Shown here piece after piece: positions 1,660 to 52,206 of a DNA stretch of 64,000 nt. This stretch comes from Psammoneis japonica. Taxonomy: Eukaryota. Location of the stretch: NCBI GenBank assembly GCA_008632985.1, contig QPGO01000040.1, forward strand, positions 67,719-131,718, written 5' to 3'. How positions within the stretch are numbered: position 1 is the stretch's first letter; each line of letters starts with the position of its first letter. Both the position numbers and the translations under genes were made by a program. The notes beneath the pieces were generated by a model. The model did no database searches and had not been told where the DNA came from. It saw only the letters and a program-made list of their open reading frames with translations.

Positions 1660-2778
1660 TCACGTCCAATGTTGATATGGAGGAATTGCCGGGAGCTTAT
1701 CCACTGTTAGATACCCAGCAGGGGCATCAATCACTTGCAGGATGCGGCTCATTACGGCGGTATTAGTCATTTGCACCGATGGCGTTTTCGGCATGGTAAA
1801 CTTGACCCCCGAGGGCTCTCCTTGAAATTCCCACGAGGTTTGATCTATATCGTCGGGGCCATAACAATTCCCAATCAAATCAAATTCAATTGTAATGCCC
1901 TCATTTGTTTTCGTCGTGGCTTTGGCCTTCATTCCTGTGCATTCTCCCACGGGTATTTCTCGGTCAAGGGAGGCTGCCCAAACGGGAACGTTACAAAAGG
2001 TTGGTTCTCGCTTTTCGGTCGTCTCCTTGAGCGTCAGTCCCAAGGGAGAAAGAAGCAAACCAATTATGCTTCCACCACAAAATTCGGCGCTTGAATTATC
2101 CGCAATTTCCGTTTGAAACTGCTCTGGCGTGAGTCCCGCCCCGTGTGCTTCTGCCAAGACTTTACCATAGTCGTTCAAATTGTACTGCACAAAGCCATTG
2201 ATTGAGTCGATACGGTGCATCATTGAACTCAATGTCAAAATCATTTGACAACACGCAACGTCTTCATAACCACTACCCGTCAGAGTAACGCCATGTTGTC
2301 GAAACAGGGCATCAACTTGTCTTGTCAGAGTAGGAGAAGACTTGCTCGAGTCGTATAATTCTTCTGCAATGGTAATGACGTTCACGTTACACTCGGCACA
2401 AACGACAAGCGACGGTTGCAAGTCTCGAAGAGTCGATCGGGTAAACAAGATGCAAATGTCTGGACGAGTCGCTTCAAGAGTCGATCGGGCGTCGGATTCA
2501 TCCACAATTACGACACCATTCGTGCCACCGAGTTTGTTGCCCCACGGAGCCAAATCCACCAATGTGTAGTCCTTGCCAATATCATGGTGCGAAATGACAG
2601 CCACAATATCAACGTGACGCTCGTGCAAGTACTTGGCCATGAGCTTGTTTTGATTGCCAAATCCCCACAAGGCAACCTTGACGTCGCTCAGATTTCTTTC
2701 GACGATTGAGCTAGTACTTGTAGGAGGCTCTGTCACAGCAGCAGACGCTGATGGTGTATTCGTCGATTGCTTCATCAT
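1660..2778 (-). CDS. NAD(P)-dependent dehydrogenase, DapB-N / 2,4-diaminopentanoate dehydrogenase (Ord)-like family, intronless
   Basis: 372-aa ORF with Rossmann-like KVALWGFGNQ, PDICILFTRST, NVNVITIAEEL, GVTLTGSGYED and C-terminal VIDAPAGY.TVDKLP, as in the bacterial Ord/DapB-like family. Confidence 0.8.
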   Translation of the reverse strand: MMKQSTNTPSASAAVTEPPTSTSSIVERNLSDVKVALWGFGNQNKLMAKYLHERHVDIVAVISHHDIGKDYTLVDLAPWGNKLGGTNGVVIVDESDARSTLEATRPDICILFTRSTLRDLQPSLVVCAECNVNVITIAEELYDSSKSSPTLTRQVDALFRQHGVTLTGSGYEDVACCQMILTLSSMMHRIDSINGFVQYNLNDYGKVLAEAHGAGLTPEQFQTEIADNSSAEFCGGSIIGLLLSPLGLTLKETTEKREPTFCNVPVWAASLDREIPVGECTGMKAKATTKTNEGITIEFDLIGNCYGPDDIDQTSWEFQGEPSGVKFTMPKTPSVQMTNTAVMSRILQVIDAPAGYLTVDKLPAIPPYQHWT

Positions 2779-3010
2779 TAGTCCTCTTCCCGCAAAATCA
2801 AAAGCAGTATCTTGTTTGAGAAACGATCACTACGAGCGACGTTATAGAGGATAGATGTTGTTGATCTTTCGTCCTGTGGACCTTGAGAAACAAAAAAGAA
2901 ATCGTTCGAGACGACTACGTCTGGAGAAGCGCTATTGTAAAGCCGCAGGAGCATCCACTCGCCACAAGAGATGATTCAGGCAATAAGCGAAACAGGCATG
3001 GGTGTCATGG

Positions 3011-4040
3011 CGTGAACCTCCAAAGATTTGTGTGAGGAATGCGTGATCCCGCATCCGAAAGTTAAAGTTATGCGAGTTCACATTTGAAGTTGCGTGGAAA
3101 CTGTACTATGAGCTACGGACCAGCTCAGGCGCCCTTCCTCGAACGTCGAACTCCACTCCCGGCTTAGGAGGTCTGTAGCAGTTGGTCGAACTCACAACGA
3201 GATCCGGTTTCAGCAGAGTTTAGCACTGCGTTCTCTCCTCTCTGCTCTCTAGAGAGAGCAGACAACAGGGCCTCACTAGCCAGCAGCCTCTCTCTAGCTA
3301 GCTAGCAGATCTGACGCTAATGCGATGATGCTGTCAAACAACAAAACAAACTTGTGCTTGTGTCAATTTCATCATGTTGGTTTTCTTCGTTTGACCCAAC
3401 AAATGTTGGCACATCAAACACCACAGTCACACACACAAAAGCTCAAAACAAGTCAAATGGATTTCCCTTTCAGGAGGGGGGTGATGCATCAAATGGATTT
3501 CTTCCTTGTGGTGGTCCAGCTGGCTGCTGTGATTGTTGAGCTGGAGCAGAGGTGCCACATTTGCGGCTGCTGGGGAGCGAGCCAGCAGTTGCGGCTGCTT
3601 CTGTGGAGCTGGAGCGTTGCCGTCATTTGCTGCTGCTGTGGAGTGGGAGCCAGCACCGCCATTTGCTGCTGCTGTGGAGTGGGAGCTGGTGGTGCCATTT
3701 GCTGCTGTGGTGCAGGAGCTGGTGCCACCATTGGCGGCTGTGTTGTCAGAGGTGGATCCTGCACCAATCCCTTGGGTCGAGTTGTTGCTCCTCTCCTCCT
3801 TGTTGCGGGGTTGGACTTGGAATCATGGGTTTGCCACCTGCAGCAGGGATTGGAATTCTCCCATCATGTCATTGCCACTGTGCCATGATGTTGTTGCTCA
3901 CGTGCTTGACTCAGCATGGATGGAGCCAAAGTCACCAACATCAGACCTTGAGGAGCAGCTGAAGCAGGTGCCAAAACTGGAGCTGTGGCACCAGCGCCTG
4001 AACAGGCATGGGAGCTGGTGCACACAGAGCAGCCAGCGCT
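3011..4040. repeat. Diverged direct duplicate of ~20371-21690 (CTAG-rich repeat plus the 3' end of the ArfGAP-EH gene)
   Basis: Shared anchors: cgtgaacctccaaagat (3011 and 20371), gcccttcctcgaacgt, ctagctagctag, ttttcttcgtttga, gtcaaatggatttcccttt and ttgttgcggggttggacttggaatcat. Confidence 0.9.
3443..4040 (-). pseudogene. Decayed fragment of the ArfGAP-EH gene 3' end (Pro/Gln-rich tail with NPF motifs)
   Basis: Collinear with 21188-21690 and retains the KGNPFD.F-stop end. It has frameshifts and CpG>TpG/CpA changes (gcgggtgccgaaactggagccgg > gcaggtgccaaaactggagctg). Confidence 0.85.
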
Positions 4041-4989
4041 GCCAAAACAAAACCCAAAATCTGTTTTCATTGACCACTCAGTGGTTGATGATTGCAGACT
4101 TTTTTGTGTCCAGCAGCCAGGCAGTCTGGCAGTCCAGCAGTTGTGGTGTTGGGCAGTCAGCCCAAATTTGAGAGTGTGCCCCTCTGACTTTGGAACAGCA
4201 TGTGTGATTTGGCACAAATGAGTTGTTTGGATTCACAAAATGACAATTGAGAACATTGGAGGTCATGGGGACATCCCAAAGAATCAACAAATTCCCTGCG
4301 ACGGGTGCACAGAACTGTCTTTCAGAAGAGCTTGAAAGTGCTGCAAAGTTGGGGTGGGTTGCCAGCGTGGCATGTTGAAAATTGTGTTGGGCTTGGCATG
4401 AAGAGAACTCATTGTGAATTGGCACACAAAACAGTCAAAATGGAAAAAAACTCATCGTGCAATCAGCGAGTCTGTGTGGTGCACCATTTTGGTGGTGAAC
4501 TGGACAAAAAAGAGTGTCAGCATGAGCTGTCAAATGTGATGGTCATCTGCATCACCGGCGTGGTGGCCATGCCAACCTGCCACTGCAGTGCCAGCCCCAG
4601 TGGCAGAGCCCTGTGTGCGCGCAGGCAGTGCAGCATGCAGTGGCACACACCCTCACCCACAAAGAGAAAGACAAGTGGTCAATGCTCCCTGCAGGCCTGG
4701 TTTAGGTGCTGCTGTGCTTCCACCCCACAACTCTGGCAAACAAGCCAATCCACACCCTCAGCACACTCAAAGCGCAGCAGGGGCTCACAGCAATCAGCCT
4801 GAGCTGGCATCACCATCATGTGATGCTGCACCAAAGCCTCACAAAGCCATTTTGCCAATGCTTGATTTAAACACGGGTCTCGTCATTGCCAACAACTCCA
4901 AAGCCTGTGCAGAGAGTGATTCAGATGCTTGTCAACAGAGTCAAAAAGTTCTGCTTGATCTTTTGCCAAACAATGTTCACTGGACCATG

Positions 4990-5350
4990 AGTGGATCACC
5001 TCAACCTCTGCTTCCATGCACTGTGCTTTAATGACGAGTGTGCAAACAAAGACAGAATGAAGTGAGAAAAGTGAAAATTGCAAGATGAGATTTTTGTCAA
5101 TCATTTTGGGTTTCCCTGAATGAGTTCTCAATGGCCTAAAGCTTCTGCGCTCTGTGCATGAAAGGCCTTTCAGAAAATGTGGTCATGACAACAGATTGTC
5201 CGGGTGCAATTGCCATTGATGCATGAGGTGTCAACATTGTTGAGTGATTGCATTTGCAACTTTTGCATCCAACCAACTCTGTGTGATTGATTTGTCCTTT
5301 GTGTGAACCCATGATTGATGTGCAATTGAAGTGCAATGATGTTTGGGACA
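4990..5350 (-). mobile_element. Fragment homologous to the 5' leader/LTR region of the Gypsy element (related to ~11810-12180)
   Basis: Shares gtgaaaattgcaa, ttttgggtttccctgaa, aaagcttctgc and tgat.tgtcctttgtg..aaccca..attgatgtg with 11858-12155. Confidence 0.65.
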
Positions 5351-5689
5351 TGTGGACATGGGCTGCATGCATGATGCACACCATGGGGCAATGCATGTTG
5401 CACTCACCTCCCCAGTTGCACATTGGAGTCATTCATCAAATGGCACCATGCAGCAAATGTTGATGGCATCAACAACATCATCACATTTGATCTGCGCTGT
5501 GCCATTGGTGTGCGCCATTGTCATTGTGTGTGCTCCAGCATGAGGCTGTTCCATCTTTTGGGAGTCTTTCTTGAGCAGTGTCTTTTCTCCTGCTCTGCAT
5601 TGTGTGTGTGTGTGGAGTGCATCAAGTGTTCTCTCAAATGTGGTTTTCATTTGTGATTTCTTGTTTTTGTTCCTGGGCTGACTTTTTGT

Positions 5690-7990
5690 CTGTTGCCGCT
5701 TGCATCTGAAGGCTTTGTCAGTTTGGACGTTGCTCTTTTGGATGGGATGACTCTCGATGGATCCAAAGTAAAAGGGGACCCTTCCCTGCGCAGCAGCACA
5801 AGCACTCTCAACAACATTGAACAACACAAACCGTGTCAGCGAGCCTGGACCGTGTGGAGAAAATTCTGTTCAAGTCTGTGTCATCTGAGATCACACCGAC
5901 TAAAGGAACCTCTCGGTGATTGGCGGTTTCCACCATCACAAATGAGAATGCAATCTACCGCATGCTTCTCTCCATCTGAAGACAGCTTGTGTGCATGTGC
6001 TTTGGAAGGTCATGACATCTTCCAAGCAAATGGAGCAATCACTGACTCGACAGTGGAAATTGAGACAGTGCCAACCCCCTCCAAAGATTCCTGTCCGGCA
6101 GAAGTGTCCACAGTCAAGGATGGCCGATGGCAATTCGAGATTCCGCATGCTTCATCAACCGCCTCTCTTTCTCCGGCTGCACCAGACTCTTTTCTCGAGA
6201 GTCTTCAACGATTGGATGTTTGGGAACCAACGCTGTTCAAAGAATTGGCACTGCACGTTTCTTCTTGAGCATTGGCTCAACATTTTCTTTTGTCTGCTCT
6301 CACCGCAGGCAGTGACCGGTCAGTGCAGGAGGGAGCTGCCTTTGGATGGACAATCACCACAGACGGCACTCCATTGGTGGATTGCGCAGGACCAGTTTTT
6401 GGAAAGACACCATCTTTGTGCCGAGCAGAGGCCTGTGGCATCCTCTCAATTGCAAGGTTCATTTTTCGACTGTGTGAATGCTGTCGGATTGCAGCTCCTT
6501 TGGATGCGGTGATTCATTGTGACAACAAGGCATTGGTCAACTGTCTCTCCCAGTTGACATCTGCCTCACCTGTGTTTGACCCAGACAATGACTCTCACGC
6601 TTTGCACAATTTTCACATTCGTCGTCAAGGCGCCAACGCCATTGCCCCAGACTGGGACGTGCTGAATGAAATCCTTCACACCCAGCAAACTCTGACTCAG
6701 CTTTTGGATTCAGAGGACCTCATTCCCCCCCAGTGCTCTGGGTGAAAGGACATCAAGACAGGCATTCTCCGGTTCATGCCTTGCCTTTAAATGCTCGAGT
6801 CAACATCCGTGCTGACAGATTGGCAGGCACATGTCAAGGTCACTGTCTGCATGATGTGGAACAAGTGAAACGTCCACCTCATTGCCACTCTCACCTTGAG
6901 ATAGAGGGAGGTGCTGTGACGTCAAGCTGCAAGAAACAGATCAGATGCGCAGCCACTGCTCCTCAACTGATCGAATGCATTGTCGAACGCAACCAATGGA
7001 ACTCTTCAGTGGCAGATCAAGTGGATTGGAACGCCCACGTGGTCCTGGTGAAGCGCTGCTCAAAGAAACACGTCAACACGGTCAAATTGGTGTGTGGCTT
7101 GTCACCTGCAAATAAAATTGCCCACAGATGCAATCCAGGTTGTCCTCACCAGTGCATTGCATGTGATCATCCAATGGAAGACAGGGACCACATTCTCTGA
7201 TGTCCCAACAATGAACAGTGGAGGAGGAAGTTCTTGCAAGGCCTGCAAAGACACTGCGACAAGGTGGGCACAATGCCTGTTCTTTGTGACTTTCTGTTGG
7301 ACATGCCACAGGCTTGGTTCAATGAGGAAATCACGCATCTCGACAATGTGGATTGCAGATGCAAGGAGTTGTGGAAAGCTCAGTCTGATGTTGGATGGTG
7401 GATGGTGACAGATCTTCAATGGCAGACATTCATTCACGTGGAACCTCCTGCAATCCGGTCATCTTTGCAACTCAGGCATCTTGCGTCAACATCAAGAGGA
7501 AAACAAACAACCACCGGGTTGGACTGTCCAGACAGGATCCCACACATGGAGAAGCTGGTGGGAGCTGTGGGAGGAGCATGACCAGCCAGTCCACAGACAC
7601 GATGTGGAGTCTCAAAAGTCATCACAACGAAGAAAGGTTGAGGCCAAATTGACGGCAATTTACAACAAACATCACAAATGCTTGGCTGAAGACAGAGGTG
7701 TGTTGTTAGATTCAGTCAAGGAACACCGTTCATTCACTGTGACGAGGATTCAAAATTGGATCTCTGTGGTCCGCCCAAGACTCAAAGAAAGCCTGAAAGA
7801 AGCCAAACGCCTGGCTAAAAGAGGCGCTCGCACCATCTTCAGCTGTTTCTGTCGGGCGCCCTCATCCGGGGGCACCGTTTCTGGCCAATTGCACAAAATT
7901 TCTGCTGCATCCTCCGCAGGGTGCACTGGAAGTGTGGGTCAGCCGGCGCCGGTGTTGCTGGGCAAAGGTGCAACAGCACTCAAAATTGGA
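5690..7990 (+). mobile_element. Degenerate non-LTR retrotransposon (diatom RNase H-containing LINE), 3' portion
   Basis: RNase H motifs GSDRSV..GAAFGW, CRAEACGILS (consensus YRAEAYG), IHCDNKALV and WVKGHQD..LPLNARVNIRADRLA; a zinc knuckle CIACDHPMEDRDHIL*C; C-terminal IQNW..AKRGARTI. Contains stops and frameshifts. Confidence 0.8.
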
Positions 7991-10168
7991 GTTTTTTTTT
8001 TGAAGACCAGTTGTCCTGGTGCAGCTTGCACAGCAGCATGACACATTGAACATGCAGCAAAGGCCGCTGCTGACAGCACACCAGAGAGAGGATTGCCTGC
8101 ATCCAGGGGTGCATTTTGTGGGTTGAATGTGCGCAGCACATTGCCTGGTGTTTGGTGCAAGCATTCAACAACTGTGCTCACTTGTGGAGTTGATGCAGCT
8201 GTGGTCATGCCACAGTCATCTTGAGCCACATCTCTCAATTGGTGTCCAATGAACTCACTTCCATGGTCACATGTGATTCATGATGGCCAAGGACATCCAC
8301 TCAACCATGTTTGTTTCAACAGCCCAGCTGCAGTTTTGTGGGTTCCTCATTTAGAATTTTTGCAACTTCAAACCACCCTGCTGGGTCAATCATTGTTGAA
8401 CATTTGAAGACACGGGGTTTCTTCTTTCCCTTGCACAATGCATTTTGTTTGGTCCAGCAGGATCCACACAAAGTTGCTCTCCCCGCGGCACTGATTCTGC
8501 GCACTTGGGGGGCAAATGTCCACCATTTTTTGTGTTTTTTTTTTGAATTTCTGGCACGTCTCACATTTTGACACGCATTTTTGCATGTCTTCACGCAGGG
8601 TGGATCACCACAGGTGTTGTGAGATTGTTTTTTCTTCTGTTCTGTTTGTGCCTGGGTGAAGAAGATGTGCATGGCACCAGCCCATCACCGCTTTCTGCAA
8701 CATCTTTGGAATGATGATTTCATCCTTGTGACATGTGAAATGTCTCATTTGACAAATTGGAGAGAATGTCTTTGTCCCATTTCTGTTCAATGTCAAGAGC
8801 TTTGCAGTTCAATGGAAAGACATTGTCGCGGGATGTTGGCAGGACCTTTTTGACTGGTTGCTCAGTTCTGAGATGTTCCACAGGTTTCATTTTTTCATGG
8901 CAAGGCAAATTGTTTTGGGGCTGCTTTCTTCTGTTGTTGGATGCAGCACATGACACTGTCCATTGTAAAATTTTTGTGTGTGTGAGAGATCGTTGTGATC
9001 CAAGTGTGTGTTTGTCTGTTGGCCAAACAGCATGTTCTGCAACTCTTTTGGTGTTTCCATGACAGACAGCAGCTCTTTTTCTGCTGCAGCTGTGGAAAAA
9101 AACAGGTTGGTTTTGCTGTGCAACAACCACCCCCAATTGAGAATTGCTTGCATCAGCACACATCTCAAAGGGTGTGTTGAAACTTGGGTGTGACAATGGT
9201 GTGTCTTTTGAAATGATGGGCTCCACATTTTTCAAGGCTTTTTGTTCCATTTTGGCCCGTTGCCACTTCACCTGTGTTGGGATGAGTTTGGCCAAAGGAG
9301 CCAGAATGTGAGATTGTCAAGGCCGCATGTCTTGACAACAGTTGATCACACCAACAAGGCACCACAATTCCTTTTGCCAGTTTTTGGAGTGGTGATCACA
9401 TGAATTGCTTCAACTTTTTTTGGAATTGGGGTGATGCCATTGTGGGTGATGTGAAAGCCCAGACAGCCTGCTTTGAGTTTCTTCTTGGCATTGACCTTCA
9501 GCCCAGTTTGTTCAAGGTGCATGAAACCATTTCAAGCTTTTTGAGGTGGTCTCAGAAATCACCTTTGTGAGGCACAGTGTGTCATCAGTGTGAGTTCTGA
9601 CAAACTCCAGACACCTGCCATGAGTTCACTCATGTGCTCTTGGAAAACATCTGGAGCTCCACAGATGCCCCCTGGCAGTCTGCAGTGCTCATGTTTGCCC
9701 AAGAAAGTGCACAAGCAATGTGCACGCTGCATCAGTTTGACATGACAGTGTCCCATGTTCAAATCAAGGGAGGCAGCAAACACGGAACCTTCAAGTTTCT
9801 GTCACATGTCCTGAACGTCAGGCAAAGGAATTGGAGTGCACATTGACCTCTTGTTCAGCTCACGAAAGTCAGAAAGAAACCAAACTTGACCATTTTTCTT
9901 TGGTTGAATGAAGGTCACAGTGCCCATTCAGAACAATTTGTTTTTCTTGAGACCTTCAACTTGCACAGTCTTTCAGCTTCCTTTCAAGTGGCCGGTCACC
10001 TCCAAGGCTTGTGGCATGGGGAATGGTTTGGCGCAATGTGGACTCATGCCTGGTTTCAACTTTAAATCCACTGGCATCCTGGTCCACTTGCCCAGAGAAC
10101 CATTGAAAAGGTTTTCAAATCATTTTGAGAGGAAGTTCAGCTGCTTCTGCTCTTCTGGGTTTAGATGA

Positions 10169-10206
<38 letters not shown>

Positions 10207-12200
10207 CACATTGTTGAGGTTGGCACAACATGACAAGCCAACCTGAGTCAAGGAGCCAATTGACAACCCTGTCATTGAATCCAATCACAGCATGAGATTC
10301 CTCAAAGTGGTTGGCAATCAACTTGAAAACATCGGCATTGAAGAGTGCACCAACATTCTTCACAGGCACAGTTGCGTCCTCTCATTTAATTTCTTTGTTT
10401 GAAAAGTCCAATGTGGTCCTGAGACTTGACATCAAGTCACATCCCATGATCACATCATGACAACTCAAAGAAGAAGGGGTGTTGTCAACATGTCCCCTTG
10501 TTTTGATCATCTCATGTTTGTCAAATTCCAGCAAGGAGAACCAAATTTTACACCGATTCTTTGGTTCTGGGTCATCACGTCAATTTGCACAAAATTGTGG
10601 TTGACAATGTTCTGCTGTCAAGGAGAACATGAAGAGGCTTGTTTGAGCCACTGGACTTGCATGAATTGTTCTGGCCCTTTTTCTAGGCTTCCCAACATCC
10701 AGCAGAGTCACTGAGCATCAGTTTTTTAAATTGACAGTTCTCCTTGCTGAGGGTGTCAGAGTTGCAATCCTTTCTCTTCTTGTGCTTTGCATCTTTGTTT
10801 GAAGAACTTGCCTTGGGTGTTTTTTGATCCACCTGGATAATTGCAGCATTCAACTCTTCCTTGCGAGTGGCGTTTTCATTGTTGCAACATGACCACATGC
10901 TGTTGCCATTTGAATGGCACCACTTCAGATCATGACCACCATTTCTGTGGCACTCTTTGGCCAGCCTTTTTGAAACCCAGCACTTGCCCGCATTGTGGGT
11001 GGTCTTTTCGCAATGGCTGCACCACTTGTCAGACTCAGAAGCTTTGGCACCAGATTGGTGACCATTTTTGGAACCATGGTGCTTGCTTGGATCCATTCTT
11101 GGCTTTCAATCCAGGCTTGTTGCTGGCATCAGCTTGGACATGAGCAGAGTTGCGCGTGTCTTCTGCAACCTGCTTTGGATGCCCCCAAAACTCAGCCAAC
11201 TCATTCAAGGTGTGCTTCAAAATTTTGGGCCCTTTCTTGGTCAGCTGACACTGCCATTTGCAAGGTGCAAGGTTGCAGACAACATTCTTGAGATCATCAC
11301 CCTTGACCTTCTGATCTTCCTTGAAAGGAGGACAACACTTGAGGTCTTTGTTGACTTCTTGAACCCAGGTGGCAATTTCTTGGATCTTCATGGTCTCTGG
11401 CTTCTTGAGATCATGCCACAAATGGCATTTCTGAATTTGGACTGCATTCTTTGGAAAGACATGACTTGTGCAAGGTGTTGCAGGCATTTTTTGAAAGCTC
11501 CTTTGGCTGGCTCATCTTCAAGATGCAGCGCCATTCTCAACTTCTTGTTTCTTGATGTTTTGACCCACTGGGAGTTGTTTGCAGCTTGTCAGGAATTTGA
11601 GGCACTTCAAAATGCCTTGTTGCTTGCAGTGCTTGACATTGATTGTGCAGGTGTGGCTGTCCTTCTTTTCTGGGTGAAAGCACTGCTCCTGGCTTGGTTT
11701 GAGTTTCTTTGGTTTGGAGGTTGATTCCAACAGCGCTGGAGCTGTTTTCTCTTGAGGTGAAAGCTTTGTTTCTGTCTTGGCACCTTCTGTGGTGTGCATG
11801 CACAATGCACCATGCTCAAAGAACAAGCACAGACAAAGGCAGATTGAAGTGCAAAAAGTGAAAATTGCAACATTGGATTTCAGTCAATTGTTTTGGGTTT
11901 CCCTGAACAAGCTCTCAATGGTCCAAAGCTTCTGCACCTGCTCAAGCAAAAATTGATGCACTTCAATCATGGGCGAGTTTGTGCATTTGCAAAATTGTCT
12001 CATTTTCCATTGGTGGTCATTGGCACATTCATCACCTGGTGATTTTGCTGTGGAGATTGCATGTGGAATTCTGCGGGCCCAATGTCACACGGATTCCCAC
12101 CTGCATCTGAAATGCATCTTGATCTGTCCTTTGTGCAAACCCACAATTGATGTGTGGTTGAAGCACAACAACACATTCATGACACATGCAGACACACACA
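7990..12200 (-). mobile_element. Degenerate Ty3/Gypsy LTR retrotransposon (gag, protease, RT, RNase H, integrase)
   Basis: RT: AASLDLNMGHCHVKL and GKHEHCRLP..APDVFQEHMSELM. RNase H: FEMCADASNSQLGVV. Integrase: WCHAHLLHPGTNRTEEKTI, CETCQK, TMIDPAGWFE, ECLHQTPGNVLRTF and APGQLVF. Gag: LKKPETMKI..CCPPF and CSHCEKTTHNAGKCW. Domain order RT-RH-IN. Confidence 0.9.
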
Positions 12201-12349
12201 CACACACACACACACAGTGCACATGACAGTGCATGTTGCATCCACATGATGGCATTGAATTGATTCACCAGTTTCTGAGTCATGCCCACAAATGGTGTGA
12301 TTGTGTTGTTGATCCCACAATTTCTGCAATCAAGGCCAAACAGAGCTGC

Positions 12350-14530
12350 CAATCACAGCGGCCCAATCCACTCTGGAGTTGTCAGAGCCAGAGCTTTGAA
12401 CCATCTTTAAATGCTCTGGCTGCACCTTGCTCCAAAGGGAGGAGAAGCAATGGTTGAAAAGGTGCCACACCATCTAATCTGCTCTTGAGAGTGGAAAACC
12501 AGCACCAGTGCACTGTGGTGAAGCTTGTTGGCAGCATGAACCAGTTCCTCATGGAGCCAAGATTCTGGTGCTGCCAACAGCACAAGTTGCGCAAAGGAGG
12601 AGACATGTTGCAAGCCTTGAAGGAATGTGTGTCACCAAACTTCATTGCAAGAAGGACACCACAGAATGTGATTCCTGTCTTCCATCAGATGTTGACAATG
12701 GATGCAGCAGCTGGGTCAGATGGGGTTGCACTGGTCAACTGTCTTGATGGCAGACAGAAAATCTTGAGCCAACTTGGCTGCATTGACTTTCCTGCAAATG
12801 TTGCAAGACATGAGTTTTGAATGGACAGGCCAGTCAATGGAGTGGAGCACCTTGTCAGCCCATCCACATTTCTCTTTCATGTGCTGGATGTGGGTTGGAC
12901 TTGATGCCTTGAAGTGTGACAACAGCAGAACAATGTGGCACCCTGGGAGCAACTGAAGTGCTGCCAGGAAAATTCCTTTGATGTTGACCTGCAATTGACC
13001 CACACAGACACTCATCTTTGCCAGAAGAGACAATGACTCACAAGGGGCTCAATCATCTTGGTGTCCTTTGATCTGCTGCACACTGACTTGAGTGTTGAGT
13101 GCATGGCGGCTCTGCGAACGGGGATTTGGACAGGCACACAACTGAAAATTTTCCAGTCAGCCAACATCATGTCAGCAACATGATGTCTGTGGCAGCAGTC
13201 AAGAAAAGACAAGCTCCAGAAGAGCTTGCTTCATCTGAGATGGGAAATGGTGCCTGCAGATTTGCAATGTCTCAGATGATGGCAGAATTGCTGCAGTGTG
13301 GGTCCAAACCCAGCCAGAGGAAAAACAGTCTGACAACATTCCACAACCAAGAGCGTGGGTTGAACAAAGAAGAGTGTGCCTCATGCTTCTGTGTGGTGCA
13401 AAGAACGGTGAAACCCAAATGCAGGACCGGTGCAATTGACTGAAATCAAGTGATTGATGGCAAGCATCTGTCCAAATTCAGCATCAAAGTCAATGACCGA
13501 ACCATCGCTTGCCACTGCAGCTCAAGAGAACTTGCTGTCAGAGCAGAGTGAGCCAGCATGTGTGCCACCAACATGGGTGTGGGTCCACTGCTGCCCCTGG
13601 CAATGATTTTTCTGTCCACAGGGCTGCGTTTGATCTTGGCAACAAACTCACATGGCATGGACCAAAAATGGAAACAGCCACACACGTGTGTGCTGTCAAA
13701 CAACAAGTCCAGAATTCCAGAGGTTTTGGTTTTGAGCAGAGTCATGCAGAAAATGTCCTGTGACCACACAACAATGCTTGTGAAAGCTCATTGGCAAGCT
13801 GGGGCTCTGCTCATTTGCGTTGTGCACCAGACCACAGCACTCATGTCCTGGCATTTCTGACATGCTGTTGCTGGCACATTTTGCCACTGGGTGAGCAACA
13901 ATGTGTCATTGCTTCAAAGCCACGGGAAGGCTGTTTTGAGGGTTGCCAAACTCTCTTTGTGTTTTTCTCATCATTGAGTTCACAGCCCACACAAAAATGG
14001 TGCCAAACAAGGAATCAATGTCATGACCCTGCTTTGAACAGATTAAATCCAAGTGGCTGCAAGTTGTTGGAGATCTTCAAAGCACCCCTTCAGTGCATTC
14101 CTTGGATGGGTGCTGACTGTGCAGCAAACTGGGTTGCTCACTCATCCTCTTTGATGCTGCTCTTTTGTCCACACCACATTCCTCATGCTCTGCAGGTGGT
14201 TCCAGACCTTGCCAGTCATCCAAACACGTGTTTTGTCATTGACATCTTTGCAAAAGTGTGCCCTCCTTCTCTTGCTCTCATGGCTGCACTGCTGTCAACT
14301 GGCCTTTTGTGCAAACCTCATCTCTGTCAGGCAAATGTTGTGTGGCAGCAAAGACATGTTCCAGCTCCAGGTGGGACCTCACACTGCTGAACTGTGACAT
14401 CAACAGTTTTTGGATGGTGCCACATGTCACGCATGCAGATGGCTGCATGTGACATTCTAAGAAAATGTTTCATGTTCCCTGTTTTGTGAAGCCCCAAAGG
14501 CTTTCTGTTTTCAATTTTTGACATTTGCGA
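12350..14530 (-). mobile_element. Second degenerate RNase H-containing LINE relic (same type as 5690-7990)
   Basis: Minus strand gives AVASDGSV (~13490-13520), CTGPAFG and MLADWKIF. GWADKVLHSIDWPVHSKLM..KVNAAKLAQDFL matches QWNSSVADQVDWNAHVVLV..HVNTVKLVCGL of the first LINE. Confidence 0.7.
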
Positions 14531-15638
14531 GAATTAAAACACCCTCTGGGGGGGGAGGGGCACATTCTTCAATGTTTGCAGAACACACCCAGGCAAACTG
14601 TCAATGATGCACTTCAAGTGTGAAGGAGGAGATGCGTTCATGAAATTGGCTCTATTTCTGTTGGCGATCATTTGTTTGCTGCACTTTCATTGCTTGGCGA
14701 AGTTGCTGCGGAGCTTGCACATGGAATCCCACGGGCCAAATGCCACATGGAGTCCCACCTGCTGGGACTGGAACCTGTCCAATGGCAATCTTTTGTGCTG
14801 CATGGTCATTGCAAAAAAACACGTAGAAACTGTGCAGACCAGTGCCGCCAAAAAAATGCAATTTGTTTGTCTGTCCGCCCTTGGTGAATTTTAATTCTGC
14901 AAAAAATGGACTTGACTGCCAACTGATCAGGTGCATTTCTGCAAAAGTTTTGAGAAGACAACCATTTTGGTGCAAAAACATGCAGCAGATTTTGTGGACG
15001 TCCTTGAGCAATTTGTGGGTTTTGTGTCACGGGTCATTTTCGAAAGATTGTTGTTGAGACGAGAGAGGACGGCTCTGCAAATTTTGTGCACAAGGGGATG
15101 CAGCCATGGCTCTGCTGCAAAAAGCCTGTGCACAGCTCTGCAAGCAAATGGGGTGCATGTTGGGCTGGTTTGTGTCCATGGCAAGAACTTGAGAAATGCC
15201 AGCTGCCTTGGCTGCACTCAGCCCAAGCTCACATGTGTCCCCCCATGAAAAGCTCCGAGTGCAGCTCTTCCCATCACACTGGCTGGATGTCTGCTCCAGA
15301 TCAACACCTCAGACAGAATGCAAGCAAAGAGGATTTGCTGATGAGCAGTGATGGGAGTTCAGCCAATGGTCTTTGCCAAACCGCTGTTGACCAAATCACA
15401 AGCTGCCCAGAGGACTGAGTCTGCTGAGTGCAACAAAGCGAGATTTTCCCGCACACTTACACTGGAGACTGGTGCAAGTTTTAGGGAAACAAGCACTGCT
15501 GAAGCAATCGAGCTTGAAATTCGGGGGACGTGGCGCAAAAGAATTTCAATCAGAATTCCGATGGACAGAATGACAGACACACACATGGAAGATTGGGTCA
15601 GTGGACAGACGACCCACGACTCACTCTACTACGTCCCG

Positions 15639-20071: not shown

Positions 20072-20469
20072 GCAAATGGTGATCGCAGGTGAGAGATAAG
20101 ATAAGATCCGCCCAGATGTACTTAGAGTCAGAATGTTGCATGCGCTGTGCGCTATCTGCCATTCTCTGTTCTTTTCGAATTTTTAGTTAAAGGCGCCGAC
20201 GTCACAAAATGGCATTTCGTTTTTTAAGGATTCTTCAACTAGCAGGACGATGGAAACCTGGACATTTCACATAACGAAGAGTTCCGAATGCTTGTTTAAA
20301 CTCCCCTTGACTTATTTATCGAGAAACTAAATGTTTTCATACGTTCTTTTAAGATATGTACCGAATCTAGCGTGAACCTCCAAAGATCTCCATGCGTGAT
20401 TCGAGAGAGTTGAAGTTGCGAGTTCACTTTTGAAGTTGCGTAGGGCCCTACGGTAGTAGCAATTGTACG

Positions 20470-21080
20470 ATACGAGGCATGAGCTACGAACGAGCTCATG
20501 CGCCCTTCCTCGAACGTGGAACTCAAAAGCGAGTTCAGGTTAGGTCTACAGTGGAGTTTTTCTCCTCTCTACCTACTCTAGTAGAGTCAGTAGACAATAG
20601 GGCCCTACTAGCCAGTAGCCTCACTCTAGCTAGCTAGTAGATCTAAAACTAATCTGATTACGAGGAGCTACAAACGAGCTCATGCGACCTTCCTCAAACG
20701 TCGAACTCATAACGAGCTCCGGTTGCAACACAGTTTACTGTGCTCTCCCCTCTCTACTCTAGAGTTGAAAATAGGGCCCTGCTCTAGTAGCCAGTAGTCT
20801 TGCTAGCTAGTACAGTAGATCTAAAACTAATCTGATTATGAGGAGCTACGAGCGAGCTCATGCGACCTTCCTCGAACGACGAACTCATGAGTTCCGGTTG
20901 CTCATGAGTTCCGGTTACTATCTACTCTACTCTCTACGGTATCTACTAGCTAGAGCTGGTAGTTTTAGTACACTACAGTAGAGTTTTATTGTGTTCCTAC
21001 CCTCTCCACTCTCTCTAGAGTAGACAATAGGGCCCTACTCTAGCCAGAGTCATCGCTAGCTAGTAGAACTGATACTAATC
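20470..21080. repeat. Three tandem ~180-bp CTAG/CTAC-rich units; one homologous unit at ~3110-3320
   Basis: gagctac.a.cgagctcatgcg.ccttcctc.aacg occurs at 20481, 20665 and 20843. Each unit ends with a variant of aatagggccct..ctagctagtag..ctaatc. Confidence 0.9.
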
Positions 21081-21187
21081 CGATGACGCTAACAAACAAT
21101 AAAATAACTCGTTTGTATCAATTTCATTATATTCCTTTTCTTCGTTTGATTCAATAAACATTAACACATCAAACACAGTCACACAGT

Positions 21188-24100
21188 TCAAAACATGTCA
21201 AATGGATTTCCCTTTGGCGACAGGGGCGCCGCATCAAAAGGATTTCCTCCTTGTGGTCCGGACGGCTGTTGCGGTTGAGCTGGAGCAGGCGCCATTTGCG
21301 GTTGTTGGGGAGCCAATTGCTGCTGCTGTTGGGGAGCCGGTGCCATTTGCGGTTGGGGAGCAGGAGCCGACGCCATTTGCGGCTGCGTTACCAGAGGCGG
21401 AGCCGGTGCTAATCCCATGGGTTGAACGGTTGCTCCTCCTCCTTGTTGCGGGGTTGGACTTGGAATCATAGACATGCCGCCACCCGCAGCGGGACTCGGA
21501 ATTCCCATCATGTTGTTGTTGCCATTGTTGTTGTTCATGCTCGACGGGGCGGGACTTGCGGGTGCCGTTTGACTCGGCATGGTCGGAGCCGGAGCCGCCG
21601 ACAGAGCCGGAGTCACAGGAGCGGGTGCCGAAACTGGAGCCGGTGGTACAGGCGCTGGTGGAGCAACCGGTTCTGGAGGAGCAGGTGCAGCCACGGGTTC
21701 CGGAGCTGGAGAAGGAGCAGATGGTACAGGAGAGGGAGCAACCGGTACTGGAGAGGGAGCCGACACGGGCGCGGGTCCACTGTTGCCATTCGCAACGACT
21801 TTTCCATCCACAGGATTGTGTTTAATCTTGACAATAAACTCATGTACTTGTTTCAATTGCGCATCCGACAAGTACAGTATTTCCTCCTTGATTTGTTTTT
21901 GTACTTGAGATTCTTGCAATTCCTGTAAATGCGCATCGTCCGTTTGCTTTTCTTTCCCCGTGGGCAAGACAATGGTATAAAAGGGTTCCAAATCATCATC
22001 GTAATGGACCTTGACAATTTTGGCAACACAGACATTCTTGGAACTGTCTGTATACGTGACGGCTTGGCCCTTTGTATATTTGGACGATGCACCCTTGGCC
22101 GAGGACGATGCCGATGTCGTTGTCGTGGCTGCTGCTGCTGCTGCCGGCGTACTACTACTCGTCGCTGGCTGTTCGACAAGTGGCGTAGACGCCAAAGCCA
22201 AATGATTAAAGGCATCAAAGGCATTCTTGCGAGGACTTGGTGGTGGAGCCGGGTCGGTAGCAGTAGGAGGCGGCTGCTGCTGCTGCTCTTGCGCCGGTTG
22301 GGGTGGCTGCGGAGGCGGCGGCTGCTGCTGTAGGTCCGGTTGAGCTTGGGATGACTGCTGCTGCTGTAGTGAGGGCGGTTGAACTTGTTGCTGTACCTGG
22401 GGCTGTACTTGGGGCGGTTGCTGTTGCTGCTGTACCTGAGGAGGCTGCTGTTTAACAGGCTGCATTGGAGCAACTTGATTCGGAGCCGTTCCTCCTCCTC
22501 CCATGCCTTGTTGTTGCATGTTGTTATTTCCAAAGCTTTGCTGTGGTTGCAAAGCAGCTGGTGGTCCCCCGCTTGCTTTGAATGCCACCAACGACGCTGG
22601 TAGTTGCGGCGGCAATTGCAATTGTTTTTGTCCAACACAATGAATCAAGTGTAATGCCAAACAAAATTCCATCTTGTCAAGTTGATTATCCACGGGTTTA
22701 TCCACCATGGTCCAAATATCTCTCAAGATGGTTTGATCCAATCCGTATTGTCCAAATAATTGTACCGCCTGTGGACCCAAGACGTATTCTGTATTGGGTG
22801 GGAATTTGGATTCGTACATGCTGTACTCTTGTGGCGTCATGCTGTACGGATCGGACGGTTGTTGCTGTTGCGGAGTAGGCTGTTGTTGCTGCTGTGGAGC
22901 CGGTGGCGGTTGAGCGGTAAATCCCTGCTGCGGTTGCTGCTGCGAAGTAGGTTGCTGTTGACCACCAAAGTTGGCAAAGCCGCCTTGTTGCTGAGGCTGC
23001 TGTTGTACAGGTTGCGTCGGCTGCGCCTGAGGCTGCTGCTGCTGTCCACCAAAGTTGGCAAAGCCGCCTTGTTGCTGCTGAGCTTGGGGCGGTGGCTGTA
23101 CTTGAGCCGGCGGCTGTTGAGGCGGCTGCTGCTGACCGCCAAAATTGGCAAAGCCTTGTTGTTGTGGCTGCTGTGGTACAGGCTGCTGCTGCTGCTGGAC
23201 GGGTTGTGGCTGTTGAACAGGCGGTTGCTGCTGCTGCTGCTGCTGCTGTCCACCAAAATTAGCAAAGCCTTGTTGTTGCGGAGGCTGCTGCTGTTGCGGC
23301 GGAGCTTGCTGAGGCTGTGTCTGTCCGGCTCCACCACCAAAGTTTGCAAAGCCTTGCTGCTGTTGAGCAGGCTGAACTGCTGCTTGTTGCCCTCCAAAGT
23401 TTGCAAAGCCTTGTTGTTGCTGCTGCTGCTGCTGTTGAGGTGGAGGCTGCTGCTGTACAGGCTGAGCTCCAAAGTTTGCAAATCCCTGTTGCTGTTGCTG
23501 TTGCTGTTGAACAGGCTGTTGCTGAGGCGGAGCTGGAGCCGGAGCAGGAAAGGCCGCGTGAAAGGAATTATTCTGCTGTTGATGATTCGCCGATTGGGAC
23601 GATCCGCCAAAGTTATCCCAACCACCGTTATTATTGGTAGTACTAGCAGCATTACTGGCTGGAGCAGGCGCAGGAGACGCATCAAATCCGAGCAAATCAA
23701 CTGCCGGAGCTGCTTTTTCCTTTTTGGGAGGCACCTTGACTCGCGTCGGCTGTGGCTCACTCGTAGCAGACGTACTATTAGCATCACCACTATACCACGC
23801 CTTGTCATGATATTTCCTTCGAATCCATATACGTAGAGCTTGTAAATCAAAATTATTTTCCGGAGCTCGTAGTCGTTCTCGCATGGGATCATATCGTGCC
23901 AGATACACAGCATTGACTTTATCGTTGCTGGTATTCTTCATCAACATGACTTCGTCCATACTAAACGTTGACGCACCCATACCCTTGACGCGATGATTGA
24001 GTTCTCGCAAGACGCCACTGCATGCCATGCAAACATACGTCCCGACCGTCAAATTGACGCACTGCGGAAGTTTAGTGCTGCAATCGGCACACTTTTTGTT

Positions 24101-24205
24101 GCACGGTAAACGTGATTGAGCACGAAGAATTTCTTCTGGTGATTCCGGGGTCTTGCGACGGCGGGGTTTGTTGGAAGAAGAACTAGTGCCTGGACGGGGA
24201 AGCAT
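21188..24205 (-). CDS. ArfGAP (AGFG-like) protein with GFANFG repeats, an EH domain, an SH3/Tudor-like module and C-terminal NPF motifs (~1005 aa)
   Basis: ArfGAP zinc finger [18 protein letters not shown]-like [59 protein letters not shown] and KGNPFDMF. First plausible ATG (MLPRPG) is at 24205. Confidence 0.9.
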
Positions 24206-24479
24206 GATGTGGTGTTGGTGGTAGATACTGTGGTAGTAACGAGAGTGATGTAAACAAACAACAACAAACGACGTGTTGATAATTGTTGTTGTTGTTGCTC
24301 TCAACGCTCGCACCACCACACGTGACCTCTTCTTGAAAAATGACCGCGATCTTTCCAATGCGGGCGGACGGAAGGAAGGACGGACGGGTCAATGCGACCT
24401 GAATCGTTTATTCGTGAATGAATACATAATGCAATTGCTTACTTAGTGTAACCTGTACATCGGCCAATGACGCGTTGTT

Positions 24480-25750
24480 GTGTTTTTTGTGAGCGCATCA
24501 TGTGTGGTCCTCCAGCTCATGTTTTGTGGTGCTTTTTGCCAAAACCATCCCAACATGCCCACATTGAGAGATGTGCCACGACATTGCTGGCAAAAACTTC
24601 CAGCAATGACGACCCATTCTTGTGTGACCAGCACATTGCTGCCTCGTCGGTTCTTGTTGCTGACAAAGTTGTTTCTCATTTGGGTGCTCTCACAACTTCT
24701 GAGTTGCTCATCAGCTCACGGTCCACAAAAAAATCACCAACTTTGTCTCCTTGCTTTTGCTGCTGCCACGAGTGTTGTGTTGCCCTCAACATGAGGGCCG
24801 GCCTGCTTTTTGCCTTGTGTGCTTGTTGCTTGTTGATGCGGCAAAGCTCTGCTGTGTGCTGGTGCACCTCATGAGCTGAGGCAGCAACAGCAACCAACAG
24901 CAGCATTGGACAACAAACTCCCATTGTTTGGGGGATTAAAGTCACCATCATGATGCAGCAAATGTGGTGCCAGTCATTCTGGTCTTTTGAGCTGCTCTTC
25001 AAAATCTCTTGACAAAAACCAACAGTTTGGTGTGATGCACCTCAGCAGTCGCTCACCCAGAAGAGCTTCACAGCCCTTGACTTTGGTGTGAATGGGAAAA
25101 GGAGGAGGCACACCAGCAGCTGCAAAAAAGCTGCAAAAAAATGACAGAAATGCACAAACCATTTTTCGGTGTGTTTGAGATTTTTTGACGCCAGTCAACA
25201 CAACAGACCTGGTCCAGTGAATGATGGGATGATGTGCATGACTGAACTGATGAAGATTCTCATCTGCCAAACTTTTGCGTTGCTCTCATTTTCCTTTGTG
25301 CCCTTCCTCCACTCAAGACTGTTTTGCTGCAAAAGCTGCATCAAACTCTCGCTTTTGCTGTGCTCAAAGTTAGCATCATGGCACAGCGGTTGCCAGCACC
25401 TCCAGTCATGAGCCACACTCCCAAAACTCTCAAGTGCCTGAAGTTTGGCCTGGTGCACCTTGGCACCCCCCAACCACAACCACTCAAAGCCAGCGTTGAC
25501 CTCATGAATGTTTTGACCTGATTTCCACAGAAAAAAAAAAATAGCTGCAAGGAGAGAAAGCATGCAACAACAACAAAATGCCATTGGAAACGGGGGAAAT
25601 CACCAGCCATGTTTGTTCTGCCACAGCAGTGAACACAATGACATTGTTGCAGCTCTCTTGGTGTTGCACCTCTCTTGGTGGTGTTGCAGCGCCGATGTGA
25701 TGGTGGGTGCGGTTCGTGATGGCAAAAACATTCTCGAATTTTGCGCCAGC
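24480..25750. other. TpA/CpG-depleted hypermutated island 2 (unidentified repeat relic)
   Basis: Abrupt compositional switch like domain 1. The few surviving TpA are attaaa, gttagc and aatagc. No recognisable protein motif. Confidence 0.85.
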
Positions 25751-28377: not shown

Positions 28378-30430
28378 GAGGGTTTCGTCTCGTGTGCGCT
28401 ACTGTGCCGGTACCGGTATGAATTGTGAGAGAAGAAAATAGTCTTCAAGTTGAAGGTGTCAAATCGTGACAGCACATTGAACATGATGCTTCTCATCCTG
28501 GTCTGCGGTCACGATTCCTGTCGACACACAGACGCCGACGGACCAGCGACGAGCGACGCGGTACGGGTGAGCTCTCTACTCTCTTAGCAGCTACTAACTA
28601 AGCTAGCTAGTAGCTACTACTCTCTCTAGAGCTAGAGAGTAGACTTCCCCAGATGCCATGCAGGCTTCGGGTAAAGACGGGCGAAACTCTCTCTCTCGCT
28701 CTCTCGTGTCTGCAATGATGCTCATCATGTCCTTCTGGATGGCACTGAAAGCAAGACAGCCTTTTCTCTTCTTGCGTCGGTGCTGTTGTCACAGGTTTCT
28801 CCATAAGTCGGAGAGCCTTATCTCTCTTCATAGGTAGTCGAAAAATCTAAGAAAAGAGTCCCCGCAAAGATGGTGTATGCAAGGCATTGGAAGTAGAGGT
28901 AGTTTGCATTACCTGAGGCAGTCTCTACAGCCACAACCAGCATGCGACGCCATGGACATTTGTGGCATCGTTCGAGTGGACAACAGCATCAAACAAAGGC
29001 CAAAAACAAAGTCGTGCAGTGTGGATACGGGTCGGAAAGACCGACCACAATGATGCAACCTACAATCATCGACAAACCAAAAGCTGTGGCGCAACACATT
29101 GAGACAAAACACATCTTCGCATCGGCACGGAACTCCTGTTGTTTTCTCAGCAGGGCGATTGGATTTCAATGAAATCACACCGTCAAGGGTACAACAAAGA
29201 GATACGATAGACCATTGACCGTTATGACAAAGTAGAGTCGGAACCTTTGGAACATTTGCACGCAAAAATACCATTACATGCCAAGATTCGGGCCGAGATC
29301 GTACGTACCATCCCAGTTCATGGCCAGTCATCGATCGGATAACGTGCCACCATGAATCTCCGACCAAGACAAAGGATAAAACTCGGAGGCTCCATAAAAA
29401 AAAAAGCATCTAATCAAAACTATGAACGGGACCGGCAAGCGAAACGAATTGTAAGAGTTGAGAATTTCCACCCGAGATCAGCAGGTACTCTTCCATGAAT
29501 GGTCTTGCCGACAGGGTTCCGATCTTTGTCCGTCTTTGATGCCCGCTTGCGACCTATTATTTTTGTCAGGGTGATCTCGAGGTGTAGGTTCCAAAGATGT
29601 GAGCACGTGGTGGTTTATGGTGGTAGGCATTCTTCGCTGCAAGCTTTCTTCTCGTTTATCAATCGTCTTTAAAAGATGCAATCCTATTCTTTGCAACTCG
29701 TGATCAAGGAAAAAGTCAATAACGAGCAAAAATACATCCCCCATCAAATCCAAAGTCCATGGATAAATTCGCCTCAGTACCATGTATACACGCGGTGGAA
29801 GATGCAGACGAGATCCGTGATAAGCGTCTTGAAGTATATTTTCCGTTGACAGTTGTTGGATCGCATAACTCTCCAATTGCATGCTCAAGAGTTTCGTTGG
29901 GCCAAATAATGAGAGACTGCAAAGCGGGTCTCATCATCAGAAAGCACTGTATGGCAAACCAAAAAAAAAGGACGGCGCCTTCCAAAGAAAAATGTTGCAA
30001 GTCTGACGAAAGTTCTGGCCATCGTAAACTATGACACAGTAAATCTTGGTTGCATCGGACGAGAAACATTCTCTTTATTTGTACTGTCCCACTCCCGTTG
30101 CTCGTCATGCTACCACCGCCGATTTGGTGCGGTGTTTACGCCATGTTGTTCGATGTCGGTGGGTCGGTGGGCGAGCGCGGAGAGACGAGCGAGAAAAACG
30201 GCTGCGTGGAGTAGCACGTTCGGCTAAGCTCGATACGTGCACCAACCGCGCCTAAATAACTAACGCGAAACTTTCTTTGAACATCAATTCAACGCGTCCG
30301 TCTAGCGATAACGGCTCACGCCACGTAGATTTCTACGTGGTTTGTACCAAGTTGCCTCCATTGCAGACAGAATCTTTCTCGTTCGAAGGCTCTCACAATT
30401 TCTGAATTGCTCGTCAGTTCACAGTCCACC

Positions 30431-45104: not shown

Positions 45105-45109
45105 GGTGA

Positions 45110-52120: not shown

Positions 52121-52206
52121 CTCGATTGCTCTTCAAGAAAATATGGATGCATGATGCCGGCGACCGCCACCATGGAGCCAATCTCTCCCCGATGAATCCT
52201 TCAATC

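Follow-up and report, generated by a model that had tools for sequence, protein, structure and literature searches.

Near-complete loss of TpA from repeat islands of a Psammoneis japonica contig suggests regional TpA-to-CpA/TpG hypermutation

Results

Four islands nearly devoid of TpA

In a stretch of 64,000 nt from the Psammoneis japonica assembly GCA_008632985.1 (contig QPGO01000040.1, positions 67,719–131,718 of the forward strand; hereafter designated the window), we found four islands, together 20,822 bp long, from which the dinucleotide 5'-TA-3' (TpA) has almost disappeared. The islands, delimited via TA-free gaps and the dinucleotide profile of the window, hold 47 TpA as compared with 1801 outside (density ratio, 0.054), corresponding to a TpA fraction of 0.0023 inside them, and a TA-free gap of 1385 bp (3318–4703) would be expected with a probability of only about 8e-26 if TA were as dense there as outside. 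CpG is also depleted, with 279 inside and 2436 outside (density ratio, 0.238); CpA and TpG are approximately doubled, and the G+C content is the same as outside. The gain in NCAN tetramers (N, any base; 0.0378) nearly equals the loss of NTAN and NCGN tetramers (halved per strand; 0.0412), which indicates that the lost TA and CG became CA or TG. The islands are intergenic, ending tens to a few hundred bp from the adjoining open frames, with borders sharp to about 20–250 bp. A first-pass annotation made from the letters alone had flagged TpA erosion at 3190–3420. The anomaly is real, but the flagged stretch merely forms the left-hand edge of an island 12 kb long, which that annotation did not mention; it had also missed the co-depletion of CpG in the same islands.

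The largest island, D1 (3319–15457; 12.1 kb), retains 30 TpA and 175 CpG and shows an observed/expected ratio of about 2 for CpA/TpG, with unchanged G+C. It contains the decayed remains of a minus-strand Ty3/gypsy pol (8389–9316), comprising an RNase H remnant (8723–9316) and integrase zinc-finger pieces (8389–8808), and two minus-strand pieces of a pseudo-copy of an ArfGap-EH gene, whose parent is the intact open frame of 1066 residues at 21188–24388 (minus strand). The first piece (3446–3898) corresponds to the C-terminus (residues 957–1066) and the second (13572–13649) to residues 850–875. These pieces lie about 9.5 kb apart, as compared with 246 bp in the intact gene, indicating that D1 is a partial gene duplicate into which repeats were later inserted. 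Pfam scans of 150 of the 158 D1 frames of at least 50 residues (of the eight dropped left-border frames, four were scanned separately) gave only RNase H above the cut-off, together with sub-threshold matches to an integrase zinc-finger and a RING domain. D1 adjoins an open frame (1660–2826, minus strand) with the C-terminal domain of 2,4-diaminopentanoate dehydrogenase, a bacterial-type enzyme.

Island D2 (24457–25541; 2 TpA and 19 CpG left) is situated immediately upstream of ArfGap-EH and holds a diverged copy (24657–24852) of 30361–30533. D3 (45084–52141; 13 TpA and 60 CpG left) fills the gap between two divergent open frames and contains two direct repeats, 46014–47341 and about 50400–51770, that are 61% identical. 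D4 (63461–64000), cut by the window end, has 2 TpA left, keeps 25 CpG in 540 bp and shares part of its length with a paralogue (58% identity over 74 residues) of the FG-GAP gene located at 60833–62311; it is possibly either a recently formed island or the edge of one. No family passed the curated Pfam cut-off in 120 of the 131 frames of D2–D4, one D2 frame giving two sub-threshold matches (TMEM62_C and TPR_Rlf). Both D2 and D3 abut the 5' ends of genes, namely ArfGap-EH in the one case and the divergent pair of 44052–45119 and a PPR gene starting from 52114 in the other, and the promoters of those genes would consequently lie in DNA erased of TpA and CpG.

Independent contigs reproduce island D1

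Contigs built independently from a public DNA sequencing run (X1) were compared with the window. One of them spans the left border of D1 (2000–3590) with 4 differences, and another covers 12226–14378 with 6 differences. A sequencing, assembly or polishing artefact has accordingly only a very slim chance of accounting for the islands: the X1 contigs reproduce both island and left border with 4–6 differences per approximately 2 kb, the borders match gene-free repeat DNA, and the changes follow a biochemical-looking context rule, as described below. On a 20-kb stretch, 2376 contig pieces of X1 were placed, of which 1392 were only 90–95% alike, and the summed depth ranged from hundreds to about 20,000 in D1 against about 55 in its flanks, such depth being not the same as copy number. 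The depth and the 90–95% pieces fit the presence of many diverged copies, and the pseudogene part at 3334–4000 stands at flank depth (about 55). In a second run, X2, flank depth was uneven and D1 was almost uncovered, and a third, X3, covered none of the stretch; missing cover of this kind is no sign of silence.

The left border of D1 lies within a duplicated segment

The left border of D1 lies in DNA that is duplicated at 20.4 kb. The segment left of the border (3010–3189, plus strand) is homologous to 20370–20524, and the unaffected copy as a whole (20371–21187, plus strand) consists of three tandem units of about 180 bp, rich in TAG/CTAG, and the 3' flank of ArfGap-EH. The 3-kb copy was aligned four-way with the three units (20471–21092), and sites were also listed pairwise. 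Both strings quoted in the first-pass annotation were found as written, with TA at 20590–20645 and with CA at 3258–3311. As an observation in its own right, the tandem units, situated downstream of ArfGap-EH, are unusually rich in TAG/CTAG (ctagctagctag).

Left of 3190, both duplicate copies hold the same TA, and 3010–3189 keeps TpA of the RTA type (R, purine; Y, pyrimidine) in either strand reading, namely GTAC at 3104, CTAT at 3107, CTAC at 3114 and GTAG at 3176. In the border zone (3190–3318), RTA has become RCA at 3195, 3214, 3259, 3266, 3284 and 3306, and CTAC has become CTGC at 3243. The replacement of GTAG/ATAG by GCAG/ACAG, as had been described, is seen against the tandem units at 3259, 3266, 3284 and 3306, and the sites said to be spared are indeed intact, with CTAG at 3250, 3295, 3299 and 3303 and CTAA at 3318. 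At 3277, where the island has CTAG, unit A also has TAG in the four-way alignment and unit B has GTAG in the pairwise one. Further examples given in that annotation are present as well (ATAA to ACAA at 3195, 3342 and 3400; CTAC to CTGC at 3243; GTAT to GTGT at 3361), as is the apparent exception cattat to catcat, a TTAT-to-TCAT change at 3373. All seven TpA remaining at 3221–3318 are YTAR (one TTAG, five CTAG and one CTAA). The transition is graded, GTAG at 3176 being intact and RTA being converted from 3195 onward; together with the seven YTAR survivors, this indicates that the same hierarchy of sites operates at the edge as in the interior.

Direction of the change

The first-pass annotation had taken the direction of change from the duplicate itself. 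Such a comparison is effectively one of a single copy with another and is unrooted, because the three units that carry TA arose from one another in tandem and cannot polarise the differences. The direction that it proposed, with TA lost in the 3-kb copy, is nevertheless borne out by Tyr changes in the pol remnant, double mismatches between repeats, composition and paired copies, and also by the de novo mutations published for another alga (see Discussion).

The RNase H remnant was compared with the best 150 of 392 homologues retrieved by an exhaustive search. Consensus Tyr residues at positions 43, 75 and 86 are His in the remnant (CAC, CAC and CAT), and the His/Tyr of position 53 is Cys (TGT). 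Moreover, Arg 1 is replaced by Gln (CAA), Arg 77 by Cys (TGC), Ile 52 by Met (ATG) and Leu 40 by Pro (CCA), and Ile 65, 72 and 97 are replaced by Val (GTT), each preceded by a codon with T in third position. Tyr is absent from the whole frame of 198 residues. Since a working pol cannot be free of Tyr, TA was lost in the remnant. Between the two D3 repeats, 25 of the 104 double mismatches are of the CA-versus-TG class, with no other class exceeding 5, as is expected when an ancestral TA or CG has been resolved separately in each copy; tested against AC-versus-GT with correction for abundance, the difference fell short of significance (p = 0.054). In four pairs of an island copy with a normal copy, none of the 30 TA of the normal copies was kept in the island copies, where 13 are TG and 8 are CA. 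For the 67 CG of the normal copies, 17 were kept, 20 are TG and 14 are CA. CA and TG themselves were kept at 71 of 105 and 77 of 101 positions, respectively (Fisher's exact test for retention of TA versus CA/TG, p = 3.5e-15). This evidence, read from sequence and independent of the duplicate, shows the direction of change to be from TA to CA/TG.

The opposite polarity, according to which C-to-T changes resembling repeat-induced point mutation (RIP) made the TA of the 20.4-kb copy from ancestral CA/TG, draws on the unrooted duplicate comparison and on the composition of 20501–21000, with its excess of TA (51 TpA; observed/expected, 1.42) and shortage of CA/TG (observed/expected, 0.64–0.66). It is scarcely credible in view of the Tyr-to-His/Cys replacements of the pol remnant, the 12 kb nearly without TA beside an otherwise normal window, the identical TA of both copies left of 3190 and the persistence in island copies of most CA and TG that the unaffected ones contain. 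Alternatively, the elements might have been free of TA before insertion, through selection or editing elsewhere, with nothing having happened in place. The many similar copies suggested by the X1 pieces at 90–95% likeness (1392 of 2376) and by the high depth in D1 fit such a history, which is nonetheless highly unlikely: the host-derived ArfGap-EH pseudo-copy and its 3' flank are converted too, the border cuts through a duplicated segment with a graded zone, and a functional pol cannot lack Tyr.

Context dependence and strand symmetry

Survival of TpA in the islands, relative to its density outside, depends strongly on the flanking bases. It is zero for ATAC, GTAC and ATAT (0 inside and 508 outside), 0.021 for ATAG, 0.025 for CTAC, 0.025 for ATAA, 0.051 for GTAA, 0.072 for CTAG, 0.178 for CTAA/TTAG and 0.448 for TTAA. 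YTAR makes up 33 of the 47 island survivors as compared with 323 of 1801 outside (Fisher's exact test over all islands, p = 1.7e-14), and RTAY none of the 47 as compared with 508 of 1801 (p = 3.7e-7). The share of YTAR among survivors had been put at about two thirds in D1, which agrees with our count of 20 of 30, and at about 9 of 12 in D3, where the share holds and the count is 9 of 13; the chance level of about 25% assumed at the time has to be lowered to the outside value of 18% (323 of 1801). The claim that CTAG and CTAA are spared holds at the border, but over the islands as a whole these sites have only been slowed (survival about 7% for CTAG and 18% for CTAA/TTAG).

These survival values were fitted by a Poisson model in which the two strands are hit independently at a rate set by the base 5' of T. 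The fitted per-strand exposures are 3.16 for A, 2.64 for G, 1.25 for C and 0.41 for T, and the context model is superior to a uniform rate (likelihood-ratio chi2 = 85.3, p = 2e-18), leaving a residual deviance of 2.5 on 6 degrees of freedom over all ten NTAN classes. Read on the other strand as A-to-G changes, the order is TAT >= TAC > TAG >> TAA. The context rule put forward at the outset, RTA to RCA and TAY to TGY, fits the survival of all ten classes, and the idea of an enzyme-like, strand-symmetric process is supported by the fit of a strand-independent model. For the products, tetramer gains correlate with the context model at r = 0.45 as compared with 0.04 for an even split, giving modest support to the rule that RTA yields CA and TAY yields TG. 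CA and TG are in near balance (1314/1435 in D1 and 764/804 in D3) and form no strand-coordinated tracts beyond the coding-DNA background (runs test, z = -0.9 and -2.1), the clustering being less than in coding DNA.

Co-depletion of CpG

CpG has been lost less completely than TpA, and unevenly within D1. At 6001–8000 in D1, the observed/expected ratio of CpG is still 0.37–0.56 with TpA near 0; where D3 begins on the left, TpA ends at 45083 and CpG continues to 45311, placing the CpG border inside the TpA border; and in D4, CpG loss is absent. Survival of CpG ranges from 0.61 for GCGC, the best, to 0.12 for ACGA, the worst, and the flank preference for loss of CG, T > A > C > G, is unlike that of TA, A > G > C > T. 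Differences between the window and the X1 contigs were classified for 40 of 85, some of which may come from contigs representing other repeat copies. Among these, exchanges of CG with CA/TG, in both directions, constitute 16 of 29 in D1 and 1 of 11 outside (p = 0.012), and exchanges of TA with TG constitute 3 of 29 in D1. The island CpG sites look polymorphic or still decaying.

The change of CpG to TpG/CpA is a second, slower process in the same islands. Transposable-element islands of diatoms are described as highly CG-methylated (PMC9998398), and, as far as that account goes, the likeness extends to the confinement of CpG-to-TpG/CpA changes to repeat islands and the best survival of GC-flanked CpG; methylation-driven decay differs in accounting only for the CpG half of the present signal. 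From this diatom literature we infer that decay of 5-methylcytosine would be the ordinary explanation of the CpG loss. A single dual-specificity system, removing both self-complementary pyrimidine-purine steps by deamination of the A of TpA and the C of CpG, would instead make both depletions one process. The two depletions do share islands, CpG loss is never seen in the window without TpA loss, and the preprint on Bigelowiella natans discussed below cites ADAT2 enzymes reported to be active on both A and C. We regard such a system as quite improbable, because the processes are separable in D4, at the left edge of D3 and at 6001–8000 of D1, the flank preferences of TA and CG differ, and the Tyr-free homologues described in the next section keep Arg (4.7% versus 5.5%).

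Tyr-free homologues in other assemblies

Among the best 150 RNase H homologues, 11 are without Tyr, as compared with 1.5 expected by chance, and some of them are as long as 606, 424 and 383 residues. These proteins, from public libraries (P0003, P0019, P0029, P0054, P0055, P0064, P0112, P0115, P0128, P0132 and P0149), have His or Cys where Tyr is conserved. Their contents of His (5.0% versus 3.1%) and Cys (3.7% versus 1.7%) are raised, together offsetting the missing 3.7% of Tyr. The ten that were checked come from Logan, NCBI/ENA, ENA and JGI/IMG assemblies. Judged from the proteins, these look like possible instances, from elsewhere, of the TpA erasure described here. A comparison of 11 metagenome loci related to P0132 (31–58% identical) revealed normal TpA in all (observed/expected, 0.70–0.97) and hence no DNA-level example elsewhere; ten of the 11 are CpG-poor, the exception being L001. 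Nine of these loci (L002–L010), which are distant gypsy relatives, show observed/expected ratios of 0.11–0.31 for CpG and 0.72–0.85 for TpA. CpG decay without TpA erasure is the commoner state among such distant gypsy relatives.

Discussion

Collectively, the islands are best explained by a regional, strand-symmetric hypermutation of TpA to CpA/TpG, of the type reported for B. natans, that acted in place on a silenced repeat island and was accompanied by CpG decay; we assign this explanation a probability of roughly 0.8. D1 would be such a silenced island, a pseudogene fragment invaded by debris of long terminal repeat (LTR) retroelements. Within it, an A:T-to-G:C transition would occur in place on either strand of TpA, the T of N-T-A being lost fastest after A or G, more slowly after C and most slowly after T. 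As the strands act independently, RTAY would vanish first and TTAA last, and a lower dose at the island edge would leave only RTA sites converted there. The actor is most likely an enzyme working on the DNA of silenced chromatin.

Host-derived DNA, that is, the ArfGap-EH pseudo-copy, has been converted too, and the border falls inside a duplicated segment. A trigger by repeats as such is not supported in the window, where tandem repeats that are 94–96% identical (34247–36126 and 36498–38545) keep 40–52 TpA per kb and show mostly unrelated mismatches. Described on their own, these two arrays have periods of about 621 and 342 bp, identities of 91–96% and normal dinucleotides, and the second lies within a frame that encodes F5/8 type C and URGCP-like domains.

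As to chemistry, we favour a putative deamination of adenine to inosine in 5'-TAY-3'. The same regional erasure might alternatively proceed by modification of the thymine of R-T-A through a TET/JBP-type activity, the resulting 5-hydroxymethyl- or 5-formyluracil pairing with G to give T-to-C changes; 5-formyluracil mispairs with G. A change of R-T-A to R-C-A equals one of T-A-Y to T-G-Y on the other strand, and the data are symmetric in this respect. The window is silent on the thymine route, and the sole published proposal, as far as the preprint goes, is a hypothetical deamination of adenine by an ADAT2-like enzyme. We consider the thymine route unlikely, though it is the least unlikely of the alternatives to adenine deamination in place with separate CpG decay.

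Several points weigh against the hypermutation reading or limit it. The sequence cannot separate adenine deamination, thymine modification and other chemistry, and what is observed here is only an end state, with no mutation in progress. Survival values were scaled to the part of the window outside the islands, most of it coding, and this baseline only approximates the true ancestors of the islands. In direct pairs, RTAR sites gave CA 9 times and TG 2 times, and YTAY sites gave TG 3 times and CA 2 times, so that the product rule is weakly supported (12 of 16 consistent when pooled, p = 0.08; RTAR versus YTAY by Fisher's test, p = 0.24). Furthermore, the X1 contigs rule out an assembly or polishing artefact but not a sample-specific oddity, since X1 may be the source sample of the window itself.

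The closest known system is that of B. natans. In mutation-accumulation lines of this alga, 231 of 302 mutations fell in two integrated viral regions, and 230 of those 231 were A-to-G or T-to-C changes, each within a TpA, arising de novo at a rate of about 6e-7 per site per generation, raised approximately 1000-fold (bioRxiv 10.64898/2026.01.13.699255). Its genome contains 124 clusters of windows that are poor in TpA, rich in CpA+TpG and enriched for domains of the reverse transcriptase and DDE types, and an ADAT2-like adenine deaminase is proposed there as a hypothesis (bioRxiv 10.64898/2026.01.13.699255). Common to both systems, as far as the preprint describes its own, are A:T-to-G:C changes only at TpA, the production of TpG and CpA on either strand, and confinement to foreign or mobile regions; the window shows TpA transitions, four sharp-bordered islands with a gypsy pol in D1, and hits on both strands. 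The two differ in that B. natans is a chlorarachniophyte (Rhizaria) and the islands here lie in a diatom-related genome. They differ also in extent, the active viral insert of B. natans still containing 3.3% TpA and the loss in the present islands being near-complete, and in content, the islands here consisting of LTR-retroelement debris and a host pseudogene, with CpG co-depleted and a measurable flank hierarchy. As for the affinity of the genome, judged here by protein similarity, the named organisms whose proteins come closest to the pyruvate carboxylase encoded in the window are all diatoms, at 67–72% identity (Skeletonema, Thalassiosira, Chaetoceros, Cyclotella and Seminavis), and the nearest PPR clusters are commonest in Bacillariophyta; an atlas query returned carboxylase clusters of bacterial type, and an HSF search gave one distant match. 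The main text of the preprint contains none of the words 'CpG', 'context', 'trinucleotide' and 'flanking', its mutation-motif figure having been outside this check, and the literature searched contained no other report of TA-to-CA/TG hypermutation and none for diatoms. The window shows the end state of the B. natans signature in a different lineage. New in relation to B. natans are the flank rule, the sharp borders, the fact that host DNA present in single copy is affected and the co-occurrence with CpG decay.

Two better-known processes bear a partial resemblance. Fungal RIP, as portrayed in the sources consulted, is likewise a defence-like transition hypermutation that depends on a dinucleotide context and wrecks mobile elements where they lie, but it converts C:G to T:A, mostly CpA to TpA, raises AT and TA, and hits both copies of a duplicate (PMC2621366, PMC3318451). 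RIP was rejected on account of TpA standing at 5% of its outside density with G+C unchanged, and a duplication trigger of the RIP kind on account of the normal partners at 20.4, 30.3 and 62 kb, only one copy having been hit. A-to-I hyperediting of repeat RNA of the ADAR type shares the A-to-G change with a 5' U/T preference. ADAR enzymes have such a neighbour preference (5' U/T), and in the islands TAG is disfavoured relative to TAY, which differs from hyperediting of this type. ADAR acts on RNA, and its inherited products would be expected to be strand-biased, clustered and limited to the transcribed element. Fixed RNA hyperediting was rejected, because CA and TG are balanced, strand-coordinated tracts are absent, and the host pseudogene and flank are affected.

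The islands also bear on annotation. They hide transposons from homology-based methods because they contain no Tyr codons and only TGA stops, a single pol remnant having passed the Pfam cut-off in 20.8 kb of islands, and they inflate random open frames.

Since the process is regional and bound neither to homology nor to an element, it would be tied to chromatin state. More broadly, and tentatively, with the odds somewhat against so wide a claim, TpA erasure may be a chromatin-guided DNA-editing defence across the stramenopiles, alveolates and Rhizaria (SAR; Rhizaria and stramenopiles), which in diatom-like genomes would mark CG-methylated islands, pass the border of CpG decay by a few hundred bp and hit single-copy host DNA, with a TadA/ADAT2-fold deaminase as the candidate actor and the Tyr-free proteins as further victims. 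The substrates of TadA/ADAT2 present the anticodon-loop context U-A-C, which resembles the 5'-T-A-Y-3' preference found here. Targeted A:T-to-G:C hypermutation of DNA is otherwise known, as far as this source goes, from one 2026 preprint on one alga. A second lineage would open the way to comparative genomics, that is, to a search for genes of deaminases or base-modifying enzymes that are common to both and absent from island-free algae, and the motif TAT >= TAC > TAG >> TAA provides a quantitative target for candidate enzymes.

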